A stretch of 64,000 nt of DNA from Acidobacteriota bacterium (lineage in GTDB: Bacteria; Acidobacteriota; Aminicenantia; JBFLYD01): contig JBFLYD010000069.1 in assembly GCA_040756905.1 (NCBI GenBank), positions 10,560-74,559 on the forward strand. The letters are read 5' to 3'. The translations under genes and the position numbers were made by a program. Under the pieces are notes generated by a model that saw only the letters and a list, made by a program, of their open reading frames with translations, had not been told where the DNA came from and ran no database searches. Position 1 is the stretch's first letter. The number at the start of each line of letters is the position of its first letter. Shown piece by piece: positions 15,654 through 40,380 of this stretch.

Positions 15654-15881
15654 ATTGACCTCCTACTTCTAATTAACCTTTTCCAATGTAATAAACATTG
15701 GCATGGACAATAATATTTCACTATATTAGATAATTAATATTTTTTAAAGTCAAGCTGACCATTAAGGAAACAAGGGAAGCTTTGTAGCATTTACTTGCTT
15801 CCAAAATATGAAATTCTTAAGAAAATAAAATTACTCTTTTTTTCTTTTAAAAATAGAAAAAAATATATAAAATTAGTGTTC

Positions 15882-16393
15882 ATGGTTGAAAAGAAAATTT
15901 CTTATTTCGTAAAAATAACACCTGTTGGAAAAATTTATATAGGCATGACTGAGAAAGGAATCTGTTTGGTATCATTTGAAAATTTTTCTCGGTCCAGGGA
16001 AATTTCTTCTAAAAAAGGTGAACACATAAAATTTATAAAAAAAGAAGAAGGATTTCCCGAATTAGAAAAGCAACTCGAAGAATACTTTTCAAAAAAAAGG
16101 AAAAAATTTAATGGGACTTTAGACTTATGTTTTGTAAATTCTCCCTTCGAACGAAATGTTTTAAACGCTTGCTTTAAAATTCCATATGGCAAAAAAGTTC
16201 TTATTCTCAAATAGCTGAGGAAATTGGAAGACCAAGAGCAGTAAGAGCTGTGGGAAATGCACTGGGTAAAAATCCAATAGCTATAATCATTCCCTGTCAT
16301 AGAGTAGTTGCAAAGGATGGATCTATTGGAGGATTCTCCGGAGGATTGTGGAGAAAAAAGAAACTCCTTAAACTCGAAGGAATTTTAAAATGA
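15882..16393 (+). pseudogene. ogt: Methylated-DNA--protein-cysteine methyltransferase (Ogt/MGMT) split by a -1 frameshift in an A6 run; pseudogene or sequencing error
   Basis: The ORF ending at 16214 carries the N-domain through FERNVLNACFKIPYGKK. The -1 frame continues SYSQIAEEIGRPRAVRAVGNALGKNPIAIIIPCHRVV with the PCHR active site, stop at 16391-16393. Adding one A to the A6 run at 16191-16196 restores IPYGKKSSYSQIAEEIG. Confidence 0.65.
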
Positions 16394-16659: not shown

Positions 16660-17718
16660 TTATCTTTGAATCCGAGTTGGGAAATGCTTATACAGTTTTT
16701 CCCGGTATGAAATATAATCGCCATTTTCATCTTCATATAAATAATAATAATTACCTGCTGAGAAGGAAATAAAAAGGTGGGAATCTACAATATTAATGTA
16801 TTTATCCTCCAAAAGGTATTCTCTTAAGAAGATTCCCTTTGGGGAATATTTTTCAAATATTGTTTTATTATTTTTTTTCTTATAAGTTCTTATATAAACA
16901 TTGCCTTCATCGTCCAGAAAGAAGCTATGGAACGGTGGAAAATATTTTGGAAAGTGCAGTTGTTTTAAAAACGCATCAGCCATTTGTTTGCTTGTTATGT
17001 GAGGATCATGAATAAGGGTTTCAGCGAATTTTTCTTTGTATTCTTTTCTTACTTTTATTCTTTCACAATGCTTGAATACTTTACCGATCTGTTTTCCATT
17101 TTCATCGAAAATCATAATTAGAAAATCTCTTACAGGATTCGAAATGTATACAAGATCGGTCTTATCCGAATATTTAACACTGATAAATGGTTCTATTGCT
17201 TCAAATTGGTAGCCTGGTGTGACTTCTAAACGCTCATCTAAAATCTCAATTATTTGATTGAAATCTTTATCAAGGAATCTTATTTTTTGGATTATGGTTT
17301 TTCCTTTTTCATATGAAAAATCTCTAGTTTTTTCTATAAAGTTGCCGTTTTTTAAAAGGAGATAGAAATTGTTAGTAGGTGGAATTTTTACTTCGTTCAA
17401 TAAAGTCCCATCCAAACCAAAAATTAAAAGTCTATTGCGGGAAAAAGTGTAAATCTTGTCTTCTAAAAAATTGAAGTTGGAAAGATTAGATACTTCACCA
17501 GGACCTTCGCCCTTTTCTCCAATTTTATTTAAAAGTTTCAGCTCTTGGTCAAATCTCCAAATGTTTCCTTCGCTTGAATTTAGAAAGTAAAGACAATTTT
17601 TATATGCTTTAAACATTGAGATTTTCCCAACGATATTTATAACTTTTTCTTCATAGGAAGAAAGGAATGAAGAAAAAATAGCTATTGTTGCGAAAAGAAA
17701 TAATTTTTTCTGTTTCAT
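16660..17718 (-). CDS. Secreted NHL-repeat 6-bladed beta-propeller protein (paralog 1), translationally coupled to the upstream rSAM gene
   Basis: Signal peptide MKQKKLFLFATIAIFSSFLSS; NHL-type GEKGEGPGEV..P motif and beta-propeller periodicity. Its ATG overlaps the rSAM stop (ATGA). Confidence 0.6.
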   Translation of the reverse strand: MKQKKLFLFATIAIFSSFLSSYEEKVINIVGKISMFKAYKNCLYFLNSSEGNIWRFDQELKLLNKIGEKGEGPGEVSNLSNFNFLEDKIYTFSRNRLLIFGLDGTLLNEVKIPPTNNFYLLLKNGNFIEKTRDFSYEKGKTIIQKIRFLDKDFNQIIEILDERLEVTPGYQFEAIEPFISVKYSDKTDLVYISNPVRDFLIMIFDENGKQIGKVFKHCERIKVRKEYKEKFAETLIHDPHITSKQMADAFLKQLHFPKYFPPFHSFFLDDEGNVYIRTYKKKNNKTIFEKYSPKGIFLREYLLEDKYINIVDSHLFISFSAGNYYYLYEDENGDYISYREKLYKHFPTRIQR

Positions 17719-18782
17719 AATTCACCTTTATTGTAATCTTTCATTAATTCAAGAACGTATGGCTTTCTTGTTATATCACATTTTTTGTAATCTCCGTGGT
17801 AGCTATATGCAAGCATTGCACATCCACCATGACAATAATCAAGAATTTTACAGCTTTCGCATTCAGAATTTCGGATTGAAAGTGCATTAAATACATCATT
17901 AACATTACTCGATTCGTTGTAAATTTCAATTAATCTTTTGGCCCTAATATTTCCTAATACAATATTTTCAAGATTGTTGCAAGGGAAAACATCCCCTTGG
18001 GGTGATATTGCAATAATTCCAGTGCCAGCGTTACAGCGAAAGAGATCTTCTTTCTGCAGTTTTTTACTCAAGTCTTTTTTAATAAGCTTATTATAAATAT
18101 TATCATATGCAAATAAAAAATTCCTCAAGTTGTTTATATAATAAGTTAAAGAATCTTCAAAATTACAATATTTCCCTCTTTTAAAGGGCGTAATTGGAAG
18201 AAATTTCATATTATCTACTTTCAGAGATTTCCCGAGATTTATAATATCTATGACTTCATTACGATTCCCCTCATGAATTACAGTTGTTGTCTCAACATAA
18301 ATATTTAAATCCTTAAATATTCTAATTGCTTTAATTGCTTTTTTAAACGAACCTTTTAGACCTCGAAAAGTATCGTGGGTTTTCTCACCTGCTCCATCTA
18401 AGCTTATATTAATATGCACTAAATTATTTTTTACTAATAGTTCAGCATATGATTCATCGATTTTGTAGCCATTTGTCATTAAATGCGTTTTCATAGGTTT
18501 ATTACTTGCATATTTTATCAGTTCAGGTAAATAATTAACCAAGGTAGGCTCTCCACCAGTAAAAGTTACCCTTGGTACCATCATCCTATATATCTGATCG
18601 ACAAGATCAAATATCTCTTCTTTCTTCAATTCTTCTTTTAATCTTTGCCCTGCATCTACTGAACAGTGAATACACCTCGAGTTACAAGCATTTGTCAATC
18701 TTATATAAACATGGTTTAGAATACCTCTCATTTCAGGTAAATCGGAAAATTTATATTTAAGACCTCTATTTTCATTTGTCAT
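17715..18782 (-). CDS. Radical SAM enzyme with C-terminal SPASM/twitch auxiliary Fe-S domain (peptide/protein-modifying maturase class)
   Basis: CNSRCIHCS CxxxCxxC motif; GGEPTL; SPASM-like FRCNAGTG..SPQGDVFPCNN..CESCKILDYCHGGC. Confidence 0.8.
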   Translation of the reverse strand: MTNENRGLKYKFSDLPEMRGILNHVYIRLTNACNSRCIHCSVDAGQRLKEELKKEEIFDLVDQIYRMMVPRVTFTGGEPTLVNYLPELIKYASNKPMKTHLMTNGYKIDESYAELLVKNNLVHINISLDGAGEKTHDTFRGLKGSFKKAIKAIRIFKDLNIYVETTTVIHEGNRNEVIDIINLGKSLKVDNMKFLPITPFKRGKYCNFEDSLTYYINNLRNFLFAYDNIYNKLIKKDLSKKLQKEDLFRCNAGTGIIAISPQGDVFPCNNLENIVLGNIRAKRLIEIYNESSNVNDVFNALSIRNSECESCKILDYCHGGCAMLAYSYHGDYKKCDITRKPYVLELMKDYNKGEL

Positions 18783-18982: not shown

Positions 18983-19960
18983 CTATTTTATTGTAAGTTT
19001 ACATCTTTTTAATATTGGTATATCTGTATTATCAGCCAGATATAACCTCCCTTTTTCATCAACCCCTAAAATAGACTCATTGGTTTTTATTGATCCTATG
19101 TACTCTTTGTCTTTGAATATATCTATCACATTTCCATTAGATGTAAGTAATGATATATAAATCCTATTCTTATGACCTGAAATAAAACAAAACAACCAAG
19201 GCTCTACCCCTAAACTAACCCCTCTTTCATAGGTTCTTTCTACTATTTTTCTTTTAGGAAAATACGAGGAAGATCTCTCTATTTTATCAACGAGCTTTTT
19301 ATCTTTAAATATGACTATCTTGTACTCGAATTGATTTACTACATAAATATTATCTTTGAGAACAATAAACCCCATGGGCACCATTAACTCATAATATTCC
19401 TTGTATTTAATTGGTTGAGATTCTGGAGTAAACATTGAAATATTCCCGAATGATTCTAAATAATTTCCATTGAAATCAAAATAATGAAATATTTTGTCGT
19501 TTTTATAGCCCAACAGTAAGATCTTGTCTTCTATTACGCAGATATTATAGGCTCGGAAATCAATCTTAAATGTTTTTATAAACTCTCCTTTTTCATCAAA
19601 AATGTGAACTTTTCTATAATCAACTACAAATAGCCTTTCATTTTTATCAAGAGATATAAATGAGGGTACAAAAAATTCACCTGGTCCCTGACCTTTCCTT
19701 CCTATGCCTTTAAGGAATTTTCCATTTTTATCATAAACTTGAACTCTGCAGTTTTTCCTGTCAAGTACAAAAATATTTTCGCTCTTTCCAACTTTAACAT
19801 CATTTATTTCAGCAAACATATAATTTTCATCCTTTTCATCTTTTCCTAACACTAGGTCACATTCAAATCTTGCTCTATTTCCTAAATAATATTCTTGCGA
19901 AAATAGAGTGAAAACATTAATTAAAAGAAAAACAAAAATTATCTTTTTTCTCCCTTTCAT
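18983..19960 (-). CDS. Secreted NHL-repeat 6-bladed beta-propeller protein (paralog 2)
   Basis: Signal peptide; GRKGQGPGEFFVPSFISLDKNERLFVVDYRKVHIFDEKGEF is a textbook NHL repeat; paralogous to 16660-17718. Confidence 0.65.
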   Translation of the reverse strand: MKGRKKIIFVFLLINVFTLFSQEYYLGNRARFECDLVLGKDEKDENYMFAEINDVKVGKSENIFVLDRKNCRVQVYDKNGKFLKGIGRKGQGPGEFFVPSFISLDKNERLFVVDYRKVHIFDEKGEFIKTFKIDFRAYNICVIEDKILLLGYKNDKIFHYFDFNGNYLESFGNISMFTPESQPIKYKEYYELMVPMGFIVLKDNIYVVNQFEYKIVIFKDKKLVDKIERSSSYFPKRKIVERTYERGVSLGVEPWLFCFISGHKNRIYISLLTSNGNVIDIFKDKEYIGSIKTNESILGVDEKGRLYLADNTDIPILKRCKLTIK

Positions 19961-20094: not shown

Positions 20095-20290
20095 AACCAA
20101 AATCTCTTATAACTTTTACATATTTGCCTTTTTCTCTTCCAACTGACAATCGGCAATCAGTCCTCCTTTCTTCATTCTCACCGACTCTTGTGAAGCATCT
20201 TTCCTCTACAGCTTGAAGAAGTTTTGACTGAAGATCTAAAGAGAGGTTTCCTATCCCATCAAAAAATACTGTTCCTTCATCTGCATATTC
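20095..20290 (-). pseudogene. Decayed internal fragment of a sigma-54-dependent (NtrC-family AAA+) transcriptional activator
   Basis: Minus-strand translation gives EYADEGTVFFDGIGNLSLDLQSKLLQAVEERCFTRVGENEE..., matching the Walker-B GAFxGA loop segment ([34 protein letters not shown]). It is flanked by stops and a G-rich tract, and no full ORF exists. Confidence 0.4.
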
Positions 20291-20524
20291 AATATGTCTA
20301 CTCTGTTATCCTTTAGGGGAGAGGGGGATGAGGGGGCAGAAATGTATTAAAATTAAATACGTTCTCATTAGCAAGAAAAGAAGTTTGGTCAATTTGAATA
20401 TTTAGAATTGATCTTGATACACACAATTGACCACTGGAAAGCAAGGTGAGACAATAGACACGTTAATTTTTTTATTACTTGAAATTTAATTTTAACAATA
20501 TTATATTATTAATGGAGGGAAAAG

Positions 20525-22219
20525 ATGAAAAAATATATAGCTTTTCTAATCCCCCTCTGTCTTTTGATGCTTATTTCTTATTCCAGTTCCTTCGAAAAAT
20601 ATAACTATTACTACGGTCATATAAGTTATGCAGAAAAAGGAACAAAAGTTTACAGAACTGATTACGATGTATATGAAGATGCAACTCTGAATTTGCCGGT
20701 TGGAGAAGGAGACATAATACTAACTGGAAAAGAAGGAAGGTGCGAAATCCAATTTGATAATGGAACTGTCATAAGGCTTGACTTAAATACAGAGCTGGAA
20801 ATTGAATCAATCCTCAGAGAAAATAAGGAAATAAAACTCGATGTTTCGTCGTTTATTCTCAAAGAAGGCAGATTATATGTTATGCACAGTGGTTACAGAG
20901 CCTTTGAAATGTTTCAGATAATGACAGAAAATGCTGGGATTTTACTCAAAAATCATACTGTTAGCATAATCGCTAAAAAAGAGGATGGTACTTTCATTCA
21001 GGTTAAAAATGGAAAAGTCCAGGTAAGATATTTAGATGAGAAAAAAGAGACACAGACTTTTGAAATGAAAAAGAAAAAAGCATTTCTTATTACTCTCGAC
21101 AATAAAGTCCAAGAACAAGAATACAGTGAATATTCAGATTTTGAAATTTGGAATGAATACATCAACACCCATTACAATGAAACTCATGAGGGAAATTATC
21201 TTCCCAAGTCATTGAGAAGCTTTTCAGGGATGTTCAATAACTATGGATACTGGAGTTACATTGATGAACTTGGATTGTATGGATGGAGACCATATTATTT
21301 AGACTACTACTGGCATCCCTATTACTATGGCTACTGGTATATGTATGGCGGGTACCCTTATTGGGTTTCTCCTTACATGTGGGGATGGATTCCTTATCAT
21401 TATGGTTACTGGCATTGGACCTCAAAATGGGGTTGGATATGGATTCCTTATAGTTACTGGGCTCCAAGCTGGGTCTACTGGGGCTGGTTTGGCCCTTACT
21501 ATGGATGGCGTCCATGGACTTACTGGGATTATCAGAGAGCGACCTGGAAGCCTTACTATTGGTCAGATAAATTTTGGGACAACTGGAGACCGAGATTAAG
21601 AAAAGATGCCATAAAAAAGCCTGGTACAAAACCTGAAGAAGACATTGAAAAATATGTATTCATTGAAAAAGATAGAATTCATAAAACCGGTGAAATAACC
21701 GAATATCTCAGATATAAAGATATAAAAAATAAAATTGACAAAAAAGATATAGAAAAGAATAGCAGTAATTCTCCACCAGAAGAATTGATCAGAACCTTAA
21801 AAGAAAATAAATTAATCAATTCAGGAAAAATACAGATTATCTATGAAACTCCAATGGATAGAAATATCAAAAATATTCAGGCAAGAGACTCTGTTAAAAC
21901 TCCTAAAGTCACAATTAAAGAATCTTATACTCATATAAAACCTGATGTTGGATTTTCAAAACCAATAGAAAACATAGCCAAATGGAAAGTGGAAAAGTTT
22001 AATAACAATAGAAAAAACATTGATTGGGAAAAACACTTTGAATCTTCCAAAAGATGGACAAATCGGCATAGAGGAGGCCATTCAGCAGGCTCAGGAGGTT
22101 CAGGGGGAGGTGGCTCAGCAGGCTCTTCAGGATCTTCTGGCTCTTCAGGAGGAGGCTCATCCTCTAAAGGAGGCGGAGGAAGAGAAGGGGGAGGCGGAAA
22201 AACAAAGGACAGCAGTTAG
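20525..22219 (+). CDS. Secreted FecR-domain protein with a Tyr/Trp-rich low-complexity domain and Gly/Ser-rich tail
   Basis: Signal peptide; FecR-like segment (ATLNLPVGEGDIILTGKEGRCEIQFDNGTVIRLDLNTELEI). A ~125-aa stretch of about 45% Y+W (YGYWSYIDELGLYGWRPYYLDYYWHPYYYGYWYMYGGYPYWVSPYMWGWIPYHYGYWHW...). Ends GSGGSGGGGSAGSSGSSG. Confidence 0.6.
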   Translation: MKKYIAFLIPLCLLMLISYSSSFEKYNYYYGHISYAEKGTKVYRTDYDVYEDATLNLPVGEGDIILTGKEGRCEIQFDNGTVIRLDLNTELEIESILRENKEIKLDVSSFILKEGRLYVMHSGYRAFEMFQIMTENAGILLKNHTVSIIAKKEDGTFIQVKNGKVQVRYLDEKKETQTFEMKKKKAFLITLDNKVQEQEYSEYSDFEIWNEYINTHYNETHEGNYLPKSLRSFSGMFNNYGYWSYIDELGLYGWRPYYLDYYWHPYYYGYWYMYGGYPYWVSPYMWGWIPYHYGYWHWTSKWGWIWIPYSYWAPSWVYWGWFGPYYGWRPWTYWDYQRATWKPYYWSDKFWDNWRPRLRKDAIKKPGTKPEEDIEKYVFIEKDRIHKTGEITEYLRYKDIKNKIDKKDIEKNSSNSPPEELIRTLKENKLINSGKIQIIYETPMDRNIKNIQARDSVKTPKVTIKESYTHIKPDVGFSKPIENIAKWKVEKFNNNRKNIDWEKHFESSKRWTNRHRGGHSAGSGGSGGGGSAGSSGSSGSSGGGSSSKGGGGREGGGGKTKDSS

Positions 22220-22505: not shown

Positions 22506-24068
22506 ATGAAAAGAATTAGATTTAGCTTTCTAACAATTTTAATTATATGTTTTTCATTATTTTCTTATTCCCAAGAACAAAAACAAATACGAGAGCTATC
22601 CCTTGAAGACTCCATTATAAAAGCCCTGAAAAACAATCTGGATATAAACGTTGAAATTTTCACCCCAAAAATATCTGATGCGTTAATATTGAAAAGCGAA
22701 GGAATTTTTTCCCCAAATTTCTCTTTAAATTCTACATATCAGCAAATGAATCAACCCTCCACTTCTGTTTTAGAAGGAGCTAGGGTATCCACTCAGGACA
22801 CAAAAAATTTTTCATTTTCGTTTCAAAAAAGATTTAATTTAGGAACAAATGTCCAAGTTTCACTCAATAACAATATATTCAGCACCAATAGTAGGTTCTA
22901 TGATTATAATCCAAACTATACAAGTCAGTTAAGAGTAAACATTATACAACCACTATTAAGGAATTTTGGAGAAGCGATAAATACCAAGGAAATTAAAGTC
23001 GCTCAGAACAATAAAGAAATTTCCGTTGCCCAGGTTAAATCAAAACTAAATGATTTAATCTACCAGGTTCAGGAAGCTTACTGGAATCTCGTTTTTGCTA
23101 TCGAGGAATTGAAGGTCAAAAGACAATCATTAAAATTAGCACAGGATCTCCTTGAACAGAACAGAATCCAGGTTAAAATCGGAACACTTGCCCCTATAGA
23201 AATTCTTGTCGCAGAAGCAGAAGTTGCAAATAGAGAGGTTGACATTTTATCATCCGAAACCCAGGTAAAACTATGGCAGGATCAACTCAAAAAAATAATA
23301 AATCTCCCTGGAGAGGAAGAAAAATGGGAAGTTGAAATAGTCCCAACAAGCAAACCAAGCTTTGAAAAAATGGCAATCGACCTTGATAAATGTATCGAGA
23401 CCGCAATTTCAACAAGGCCTGAGCTGGAACAGTTAAAAATCGATGTTGAAAATAACAACATTAACATAAAATTTTATAAAAATCAGCTTCTACCATCTCT
23501 TGATCTAACAGGTTCCGTATGGAGCACAGGGAGATCAGGAGATATGGTAATTTATGAAAATAATAATCCTTTTTTTGGAAAAATAATTGGAAAAATAGAA
23601 GGTTCCACAACTGATTCTATTAAAGATGCGTTGAAAGCTCTATATAAAAATTATTATGTAGCTTTAAACATTTCATACCCTCTTTTCACCGCTCCTATAA
23701 AAGCTGACCTTGCAAGGTCTCAACTGGAACTATCCCAATCCCTCTTAAGAATTAAAAGCTTAGAACAGACGATCAACTTAGATGTAAGAACAGCTGTTAG
23801 GGAAATTGAGGCCAACCTTAAAAAGCTTGATGCAACAAAAAAAGCAAGGGAATTGGCTGAGAAAAAATTGGAGGCAGAACAGAAAAAATTGAATGTGGGG
23901 CTGAGCACCAACTATCAGGTACTTCAGTTCCAGAGAGACCTTTCGATAGCCCAAACATCTGAGTTAAAAGCAATAATCGATTACAACCTTTCAATTGCAA
24001 AACTCAATAAAGCAATGGGAAAATCCCTTGAAGCTCATAACATAAAATTTAATGAAATAATAAAATAA
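22506..24068 (+). CDS. TolC-family outer membrane efflux protein
   Basis: Signal peptide, ~520 aa with duplicated OEP coiled-coil/barrel repeats; strong GAGGAGG RBS. Confidence 0.75.
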   Translation: MKRIRFSFLTILIICFSLFSYSQEQKQIRELSLEDSIIKALKNNLDINVEIFTPKISDALILKSEGIFSPNFSLNSTYQQMNQPSTSVLEGARVSTQDTKNFSFSFQKRFNLGTNVQVSLNNNIFSTNSRFYDYNPNYTSQLRVNIIQPLLRNFGEAINTKEIKVAQNNKEISVAQVKSKLNDLIYQVQEAYWNLVFAIEELKVKRQSLKLAQDLLEQNRIQVKIGTLAPIEILVAEAEVANREVDILSSETQVKLWQDQLKKIINLPGEEEKWEVEIVPTSKPSFEKMAIDLDKCIETAISTRPELEQLKIDVENNNINIKFYKNQLLPSLDLTGSVWSTGRSGDMVIYENNNPFFGKIIGKIEGSTTDSIKDALKALYKNYYVALNISYPLFTAPIKADLARSQLELSQSLLRIKSLEQTINLDVRTAVREIEANLKKLDATKKARELAEKKLEAEQKKLNVGLSTNYQVLQFQRDLSIAQTSELKAIIDYNLSIAKLNKAMGKSLEAHNIKFNEIIK

Positions 24069-40035: not shown

Positions 40036-40380
40036 GGGGGCGAAAAGGACTCGACGAGGTATTGAAAGAATGGGAAGCATGTCAAGTTGCCGCCATGATT
40101 GTAAAAAGGGCGGAAAAAATTAAGTGCAGAAACACTGCCTGTTGCTGCCTAAGTGAATAGGCAACCGTCTCTTAAGCTTTTTCCTGCGGAGCTTTTGAGG
40201 CGTGATGAAGCAGGATAGTTCCTGAAAGAATGTTCTCTCTTTCAGGAGCAAATTTTAAGAAGAGCTGGTTTGAATATTTCCTGCTTTCTGGGATATTCAA
40301 ACGAGATTAAAAGAAAGCTAAACATGTAGATGCCCGTTACTAAATGCTTTCGGACGTGGGTTCGAATCCCACCGCCTCCA
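40036..40380 (+). ncRNA. ssrA: tmRNA (ssrA, transfer-messenger RNA)
   Basis: 5-prime GGGGGCGAAAAGGACTCGACGAGG (tRNA-like acceptor/D-analog) and 3-prime GGACGTGGGTTCGAATCCCACCGCCTCCA (T-arm plus acceptor). 7-bp acceptor stem carries the G3-U70 Ala identity pair. Internal tag ORF ...GCAGAAACACTGCCTGTTGCTGCCTAA (AETLPVAA stop). Confidence 0.85.

Follow-up and report, generated by a model that had tools for sequence, protein, structure and literature searches.

A 564-residue protein is encoded at positions 20525 to 22219, on the forward strand, of a 64,000-nucleotide stretch of contig JBFLYD010000069.1 from an Acidobacteriota bacterium (the whole stretch is called the window below). Its open reading frame (ORF) is complete and continuous. 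A Sec-type signal peptide or signal anchor stands at the N-terminus and is followed by a FecR-type domain, a conserved helical linker and DUF6600, a domain very rich in tyrosine and tryptophan; a Lys/Asp-rich segment and then a Gly/Ser-rich tail complete the protein, in agreement with the sequence-only reading of this DNA that preceded the present analysis (residues ~355-430 and ~515-564 of the translation). The gene belongs to a catalogued family, in which it is divergent and extreme in composition, and public records already label it so, NCBI having an identical protein (entry P0001) under the name [quoted passage not shown].

The aromatic domain and its family

The aromatic stretch comprises residues 240-346 (nucleotides 21242-21562). 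Its 107 residues include 29 Tyr, 21 Trp, 12 Gly and 10 Pro, which together make up 67%. The sequence-only reading, which described about 125 residues composed almost wholly of these four amino acids with some 30 Tyr and 22 Trp, was essentially right in its counts and in the extreme Tyr/Trp content; the length and the purity of the stretch were overstated. Across the window's 45 other long ORFs, Tyr accounts for 4.4% and Trp for 1.1% of the residues, and no 107-residue stretch of theirs exceeds 15% Tyr plus Trp, against 47% here; the binomial probability of the enrichment is about 4e-34. The window has a GC content of about 30%, and such AT richness favours Tyr. The Tyr codons of the stretch on the forward strand are 14 TAC and 15 TAT, compared with 164 and 626 in the other ORFs of the window (Fisher p = 0.002).

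When family profiles are searched against all six frames of the whole window, they match in the annotated frame alone, and this frame is kept in all 118 homologues found. The other five frames of the aromatic region are stop-rich or featureless. The two shadow ORFs that overlap the region (Table 1) are thus most plausibly by-products of the skewed codon content (TAY, TGG, GGN and CCN).

DUF6600 and FecR are the sole Pfam matches of the protein at E<=1. The FecR match (PF04773) covers residues 64-166 at 32.8 bits, above the curated cut-off of 24, and bears out the FecR-domain assignment of the sequence-only reading on an intact ORF; the DUF6600 match (PF20245) aligns residues 237-332 with profile positions 4-99 of 102 at 37.3 bits (E 3.1e-9, cut-off 27). 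Canonical DUF6600 members reach 96-115 bits on the same model, so the window protein is a divergent member. A homologue search returned 118 proteins of 26-44% identity and none above 45%; nearly all combine FecR with DUF6600, most have 600-700 residues, and those with a named source belong to Candidatus Aminicenantes.

Conservation was counted in an alignment of these 118 homologues and the window protein, 119 sequences in all. Thirteen Gly, Trp or Pro positions of the aromatic domain are invariant, among them G241, W243, G250, W254, P256, P265, W286, G294, W296, W304, W306 and P308, and all thirteen are present in the window protein, indicating that the stretch is under selection. G287, W288, P290, H292, W298 (115 of 119) and G303 are near-invariant; W271 and W280 are found in 97 and 95 sequences, respectively, and are lost together in one clade. 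The window protein follows the family skeleton YGxW...YGxVWxP...WxPY..G.W...PWGWxPYHxGxWxW...GWxWxPG, which recurs in distant members from other phyla. Since the family averages 17.3 Trp (with 14.5 Tyr and 9.4 Phe) per domain of about 125 residues, the alignment indicates that Trp density is a conserved family property and no peculiarity of this gene. Database search and conservation in relatives thus uphold the aromatic stretch as real and selected, and place it in a catalogued, NCBI-labelled domain; it is no unprecedented low-complexity sequence. None of the papers in the library searched mentions DUF6600, PF20245 or IPR046535.

Within the 119 sequences one clade of 22 (the P0090-P0114 group) carries aliphatic residues or Phe in place of W263, W271, W280, W316 and W319. 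All Trp residues of the first and third of the four hairpins predicted for the domain (see below) are kept in this clade; these two hairpins therefore make up the indispensable core.

The window protein shares with the FecR-DUF6600 proteins of Aminicenantes and other Acidobacteriota the order of domains, the invariant Gly, Trp and Pro residues, the signal peptide, the helical linker and the Gly/Ser tail. It differs from typical members in having about twice as much Tyr, very little Phe and fewer charged and aliphatic residues than any other of the 119; it is also about 90 residues shorter (564 against ~650) with a degenerate C-terminal conserved module. Its domain is the most aromatic of the set, with 45% Tyr plus Trp compared with a mean of 25% and a next-best value of 33%. 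About nine of the 29 Tyr are Tyr in most relatives, five replace other aromatic residues, and about 15 replace charged, aliphatic or Gly residues (for example E242, R270, Q277, E284, L293, I295, G309 and D318). The charged fraction of the domain (7.2%; family 13.3 ± 1.9%) and its aliphatic fraction (12.4%; family 20.3 ± 2.6%) are each the lowest of the 119. AT bias was considered as a sufficient cause of the Tyr excess and ruled out: a proxy for AT richness, I+K+N minus G+A+R+P in the FecR part of the 119 homologues, correlates with the Tyr content of the domain at a Spearman coefficient of -0.17, and the window copy lies about 6 standard deviations above the regression. The extra Tyr may represent lineage-specific drift, or else may have been selected.

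Predicted fold and possible tryptophan pairing

A full-length AlphaFold2 (AF2) model built from the 119-sequence alignment has a mean predicted local distance difference test score (pLDDT) of 73 and a predicted template modelling score of 0.71. The FecR-type beta-sandwich is predicted at pLDDT >90, the spacer after the helical linker is poorly predicted, and residues 240-340 return to 83-91; residues 431-564 are predicted to be disordered. In the aromatic domain the model has four beta-hairpins, with a short helix at residues 288-292 over the PWGWIPYH motif (Table 1). A domain-only AF2 run gave the same four hairpins at lower confidence. Profile-profile comparison relates hairpin unit 1 to unit 3 and unit 2 to unit 3 with 94% probability each, and unit 4 is more divergent; at least three of the four predicted hairpins are therefore recognisable, by their profiles, as repeats of one unit, and the loose YxW/PYY periodicity remarked in the sequence-only reading finds its explanation here.

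The limits assigned to the predicted strands by DSSP, read together with conservation, would oppose Trp residues across each hairpin if the strands pair in register: W243 with W254, W271 with W280, W296 with W306 and W298 with W304, and W319 with W328. The pair 271-280 is the sole one in a covariation analysis that fits the predicted register, in a signal dominated by one clade. Such an arrangement recalls the tryptophan zippers, synthetic beta-hairpins defined by Trp pairs that face each other across the strands at non-hydrogen-bonded positions and stabilise small designed peptides (Cochran et al. 2001, as summarised in PMC7915549). Hairpin 3 of the window protein likewise reads WxW-turn-WxW, and Trp would face Trp in every hairpin if the strands pair symmetrically. 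The DUF6600 domain differs from the synthetic zippers in being natural and in having four hairpins, turns of greater length, a Pro cap and additional packing of aromatic residues.

Foldseek searches with the full-length model recovered FecR-like periplasmic domains (4m0n and 4m0h, and PupR in 6ovk_R) at E 2e-6 to 1e-5 over about 145 columns, and marginally 5ix9 (64 columns, template modelling score 0.74 on the target, E 0.034). These matches most likely stem from the FecR sandwich, because the DUF6600-only model recovered none of them; against PDB and viral models it had no match better than E=3. A DUF6600 sequence profile gave no convincing match to PDB chains. Weak matches of the full-length profile to RecA (18 bits to a single chain, inflated in fused multimers) were judged to be chance.

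The structure 5ix9 is RIN, the N-terminal periplasmic retention ("plug") module of the type-1-secreted adhesin MpIBP (PMC5550230), and a TolC-family gene lies downstream of the window gene. Beyond this marginal local likeness the window protein departs from type-1-secreted adhesins, having a Sec signal, no RTX (repeats-in-toxin) repeats and no C-terminal type-1 signal; the RTX nonapeptide pattern with its Asp residues is absent from the Gly-rich tail. The tails of the family end in a conserved GGGK-I-K-N, the terminus KIKN being found in 25 of 119 sequences (alignment A2) and close variants in others.

A hydrophobic N-terminal signal is found across the family. The signal peptide of the window protein makes export probable, as the sequence-only reading had supposed, and it may be cleaved; no standard lipobox was found at the N-terminus.

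Table 1. Features of the DUF6600 gene and its immediate surroundings (window coordinates).
Feature	Position	Strand	Basis
FecR-DUF6600 family protein, complete ORF	20525..22219	+	Translation, Pfam, NCBI match
Sec-type signal peptide or signal anchor (MKK, hydrophobic run, SYSSS)	20525..20590	+	Sequence; AF2 helix at residues 2-20; family consensus
FecR-type beta-sandwich, residues ~30-200 (Pfam part residues 64-166, nucleotides 20714-21022)	20612..21124	+	Pfam; AF2 pLDDT >90; Foldseek
Conserved helical linker, residues 205-220, motif DFxxWNxxxN, invariant W209	21137..21184	+	Alignment, AF2
DUF6600 domain, Pfam match residues 237-332	21233..21520	+	Pfam, AF2
Predicted hairpin 1, residues 241-246/251-256; invariant G241, W243, G250, W254, P256	21245..21292	+	DSSP on AF2 model; conservation
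Predicted hairpin 2, residues 270-274/277-281; W271, W280	21332..21367	+	DSSP on AF2 model; conservation
Most conserved family motif (E)PWGWIPYH(L)G, here YMWGWIPYHY; W286, G287, W288, P290, H292	21374..21403	+	Alignment
Predicted hairpin 3, residues 294-299/303-308, WxW...WxW; invariant G294, W296, W304, W306, P308	21404..21448	+	DSSP, conservation
Predicted hairpin 4, residues 317-322/325-330; W319, W328, P330; most divergent unit	21473..21514	+	DSSP, conservation
Lys/Asp/Glu-rich, partly helical segment, residues ~355-430; aligns to family 'KDQLKxP'	21587..21814	+	pLDDT 75-87 for residues 370-430
Low-confidence segment, residues 431-514; poor alignment to 'RFRDWNPD...YSSxxNEVxCPxLxxSS' module	21815..22066	+	pLDDT <50
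Gly/Ser-rich tail, predicted disordered, ends GGGGKTKDSS	22067..22216	+	pLDDT <50; 67% Gly+Ser in last 60 residues
Shadow ORF	21234-21629	-	ORF list
Shadow ORF	21327-21599	+	ORF list
Sigma-70-like promoter match, TTGAAA-17-TATATT	20479..20507	+	Consensus scan, 10/12 matches, weak evidence
Shine-Dalgarno-like GGAGGG just before ATG	~20514-20519	+	Sequence
Sigma-54 activator remnant, 70-residue fragment with stops/frameshifts around	~20096-20305	-	PF00158 positions 88-138 of 168, E 2.5e-13
TolC-family outer-membrane factor gene	22506-24068		PF02321, E 1.4e-46

Gene neighbourhood and breadth of DUF6600

Both neighbours pointed out in the sequence-only reading, a decayed sigma-54 activator just upstream and a TolC-like gene downstream, are recognised by Pfam (Table 1). 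The activator remnant lies 220 bp upstream in divergent orientation; 51 of its residues match the AAA+ interaction domain and the rest of the gene is gone. Neither the sigma-54 activator nor the TolC gene is a conserved partner in related genomes. Other genes of the window encode FadL-like, TonB-dependent-like and OmpA-family proteins and GT2 and GT4 glycosyltransferases, so that the neighbours, TolC included, are largely envelope genes, none of which amounts to an operon partner. An O6-methylguanine-DNA methyltransferase gene (ogt) is split over two frames, 15795-16214 (+), which carries Methyltransf_1N, and 16250-16393 (+), where just the latter half of the DNA-binding domain remains, with the PCHRV motif in it; this is either a frameshifted pseudogene or a sequence error, and together with the sigma-54 remnant it gives a hint of local gene decay.

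When neighbours within four genes on either side were clustered for 71 loci, none proved to be conserved across phyla, and synteny is lineage-specific. Most often in Aminicenantes it is a solitary gene that converges on an M23 peptidase gene and diverges from NUDIX and FBPase genes and the mraZ-dcw cluster. In Sphingobacteriales it lies amid housekeeping genes.

The domain is widespread. Searched against 1.84 billion cluster representatives (50% identity), the DUF6600 profile matches 12,989 at E<=1e-3 and 9,736 at E<=1e-10. DUF6600 was found in all 41 distant representatives that were scanned, FecR in 24 of them, and a cluster look-up of these representatives gave no informative protein names. 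A scan of one genome per species (GTDB) yielded at least 411 carriers, which include Aminicenantes, Thermoanaerobaculia and Terriglobia among the Acidobacteriota; Pedobacter, Mucilaginibacter, Chitinophagaceae and Taibaiella among the Bacteroidota; and Verrucomicrobiota, Planctomycetota, Desulfobacterota, Nitrospirota, WOR-3, Binatia and a few Proteobacteria. All credibly labelled carriers belong to diderm (Gram-negative) phyla; a few automatically binned metagenome-assembled genomes bear implausible titles ("uncultured Klebsiella", "Bifidobacterium"). In other phyla the proteins follow a common plan of signal peptide, optional N-domain, DUF6600 and a long low-complexity tail of varying composition.

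A possible envelope role and its alternatives

It is tentatively proposed that the gene encodes an exported envelope scaffold, in which a Trp-fastened hairpin domain and a FecR docking domain are combined with a glycan-binding aromatic surface; for the envelope function as such our confidence is low. The protein probably leaves the cytoplasm through Sec. DUF6600 would be a small all-beta module in which a hairpin unit of about 22 residues is repeated four times in tandem, each unit having the form (P)YxxGxWxW, a short Gly-ended turn and WxWxP. Trp residues opposed on the two strands would fasten each hairpin in tryptophan-zipper fashion, and the stacked aromatic faces would form the core of the domain, aliphatic residues being too scarce in it to build a hydrophobic core of the usual kind. 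Trp density would then be a structural requirement common to the whole family, to which this copy would have added the exchange of about 15 charged or aliphatic positions for Tyr. The FecR beta-sandwich would be the docking site for a partner protein; the ligand of the aromatic DUF6600 surface would be a polymer of the envelope, most probably a glycan (peptidoglycan, for example), with the PWGWxPYHxG motif (a Trp/Tyr platform and a His) as the best candidate binding site; the disordered Gly/Ser tail would serve as a flexible spacer. The adjacency of the gene to an M23 peptidase gene and the dcw cluster in Aminicenantes and the envelope genes of the window are consistent with such a role. The sequence-only reading held that the Trp density implies function. 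Selection on the stretch agrees with this, and structural cross-strand Trp pairs would explain the density more simply than ligand binding; the adhesive, carbohydrate-binding and membrane-binding roles that it suggested are conjectural.

Several observations weigh against the proposal. The cross-strand Trp pairing was read from strand boundaries and not from coordinates, the covariation signal is swamped by the single 22-sequence clade that lost W263, W271, W280, W316 and W319 together, and the domain-only model is moderately confident (pLDDT 71). No neighbour is shared across phyla; the envelope-glycan context is limited to lineages, and inheritance of gene order might be enough to account for it. 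Searches by sequence or fold (Pfam at E<=1, Foldseek, PDB profile search) matched no family known to bind carbohydrate, peptidoglycan or membranes, and for DUF6600 itself CW_binding_1, LysM, SH3b and carbohydrate-binding modules gave no match of either kind. In the window copy the family residues E284 and P285 are missing from the candidate binding motif, and the C-terminal module is degenerate, so that the function of this copy may differ or be in decay.

A more venturesome and rather doubtful version of the proposal holds that DUF6600 is a natural tandem tryptophan-zipper fold and an unrecognised envelope-binding module in thousands of diderms, and that the window copy, its charged and aliphatic surface exchanged for Tyr, could be a specialised variant of different, stickier binding. 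The locus itself is of modest weight, and the family is more interesting than this gene: DUF6600 has some 13,000 cluster representatives in many phyla and neither a solved structure nor a detectable structural analogue. If its hairpins are indeed fastened by cross-strand Trp, it would provide a natural example of a motif otherwise known chiefly from designed peptides, and would be a reasonable target for structure work and envelope-binding assays in culturable carriers such as Pedobacter and Geobacter.

We consider it unlikely that the protein is instead a signalling accessory, a periplasmic sensor or co-sensor feeding a neighbouring two-component system, of whose partner the sigma-54 remnant would be a relic. 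FecR-type domains do act in trans-envelope signalling, Foldseek ties the N-domain to PupR/FecR signalling domains, and in five Thermoanaerobaculia loci (L021, L023, L024, L034 and L040) the genes next downstream of DUF6600, in the same orientation, encode a membrane histidine kinase and a sigma-54-dependent response regulator. A pair of this kind lies between two DUF6600 paralogues in one Acidobacteriaceae locus (L067), and one Aminicenantes genome has genes for a kinase and an OmpR-type regulator immediately upstream, again in the same orientation. However, the arrangement is seen in just about 7 of the 71 loci and its orientation varies between lineages; the window remnant, although near the gene, is divergent and dead, and no GG-N10-GC sigma-54 promoter was found upstream of the gene. 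FecR is, moreover, absent from 17 of the 41 distant representatives and from Bacteroidota members, whose genes sit among housekeeping genes.

Trp and Tyr favour the lipid-water interfaces of membranes, and a nearly uncharged Trp/Tyr-rich domain might partition into the interface of the inner or outer membrane and tether the protein there. The low charge of the domain (7% against a family mean of 13%), the probable export of the protein and the diderm nature of credibly labelled carriers fit this explanation, which we nevertheless regard as distinctly improbable: the predicted strands, of 5-6 residues, are too short for a membrane span, typical members keep a charged face (E242, D246, D247, R255 and K301), and no likeness to a known membrane-binding fold was found.

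Still less can be said for a disordered aromatic "sticker" driving phase separation, one of the functions suggested in the sequence-only reading, or forming an adhesive coating. The copy is the most aromatic of 119, with charged and aliphatic residues exchanged for Tyr, and long disordered tails occur in the family. The invariant Gly, Trp and Pro residues at fixed spacings, the internal repeats and the four-hairpin prediction at pLDDT 83-91 argue instead for a folded domain and against a phase-separating disordered region, and make the sticker very improbable.

The Pfam FecR match and the likeness to 4m0n (a "putative anti-sigma factor") and PupR might also suggest a classical FecR-type anti-sigma factor of a cell-surface signalling system, an explanation that is effectively refuted and scarcely credible. 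The periplasmic domain of FecR/PupR-type anti-sigma regulators (6ovk chain R; 4m0n/4m0h) does share the beta-sandwich fold of the window N-domain. In the window protein just about 20 residues, the signal peptide, precede the FecR region, leaving no cytoplasmic anti-sigma domain, and no upstream in-frame extension exists that could encode one. Pfam found no DUF4880, DUF4974 or other anti-sigma domain, the C-terminal DUF4974/STN-mimic subdomain of those regulators thus being absent, and the scanned neighbours include neither an extracytoplasmic function (ECF) sigma factor (sigma-70_r2/r4) nor a signalling-N-domain (STN) transducer. Without a cytoplasmic domain, DUF4974 or an ECF sigma partner, the FecR-type sandwich is not part of an anti-sigma factor. 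In this respect the protein resembles LipL45 and Lsa33 of Leptospira (Lsa33 in PMC3444417), FecR-domain lipoproteins that are likewise exported and are not anti-sigma factors, and to which it has a weak, partial similarity in the FecR region. It differs from them in lacking a standard lipobox, and the corresponding models do not reach the DUF6600 region; NF033165 and NF047849 (LipL45/Lsa33) score 17.3 against a cut-off of 350 and 33.6 against 420, in the FecR region only.

A sequencing, assembly or frameshift artefact, which the sequence-only reading had named as the finding that would undo it and to which two broken genes nearby (the sigma-54 remnant and the frameshifted ogt) and the shadow ORFs might point, can be dismissed as virtually impossible, the 564 codons being continuous with every invariant residue of the 119-member family in place and the other frames holding no homology.

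Further features of the window were noted. A radical SAM/SPASM gene at 17715-18782 (-) resembles peptide maturases, all its NCBIfam matches being below cut-offs, and is flanked by two genes for DUF5128/NHL six-bladed beta-propellers at 16660-17718 and 18983-19960 (-). A tmRNA gene lies at 40036-40380 (+), with the short predicted tag peptide AETLPVAA.

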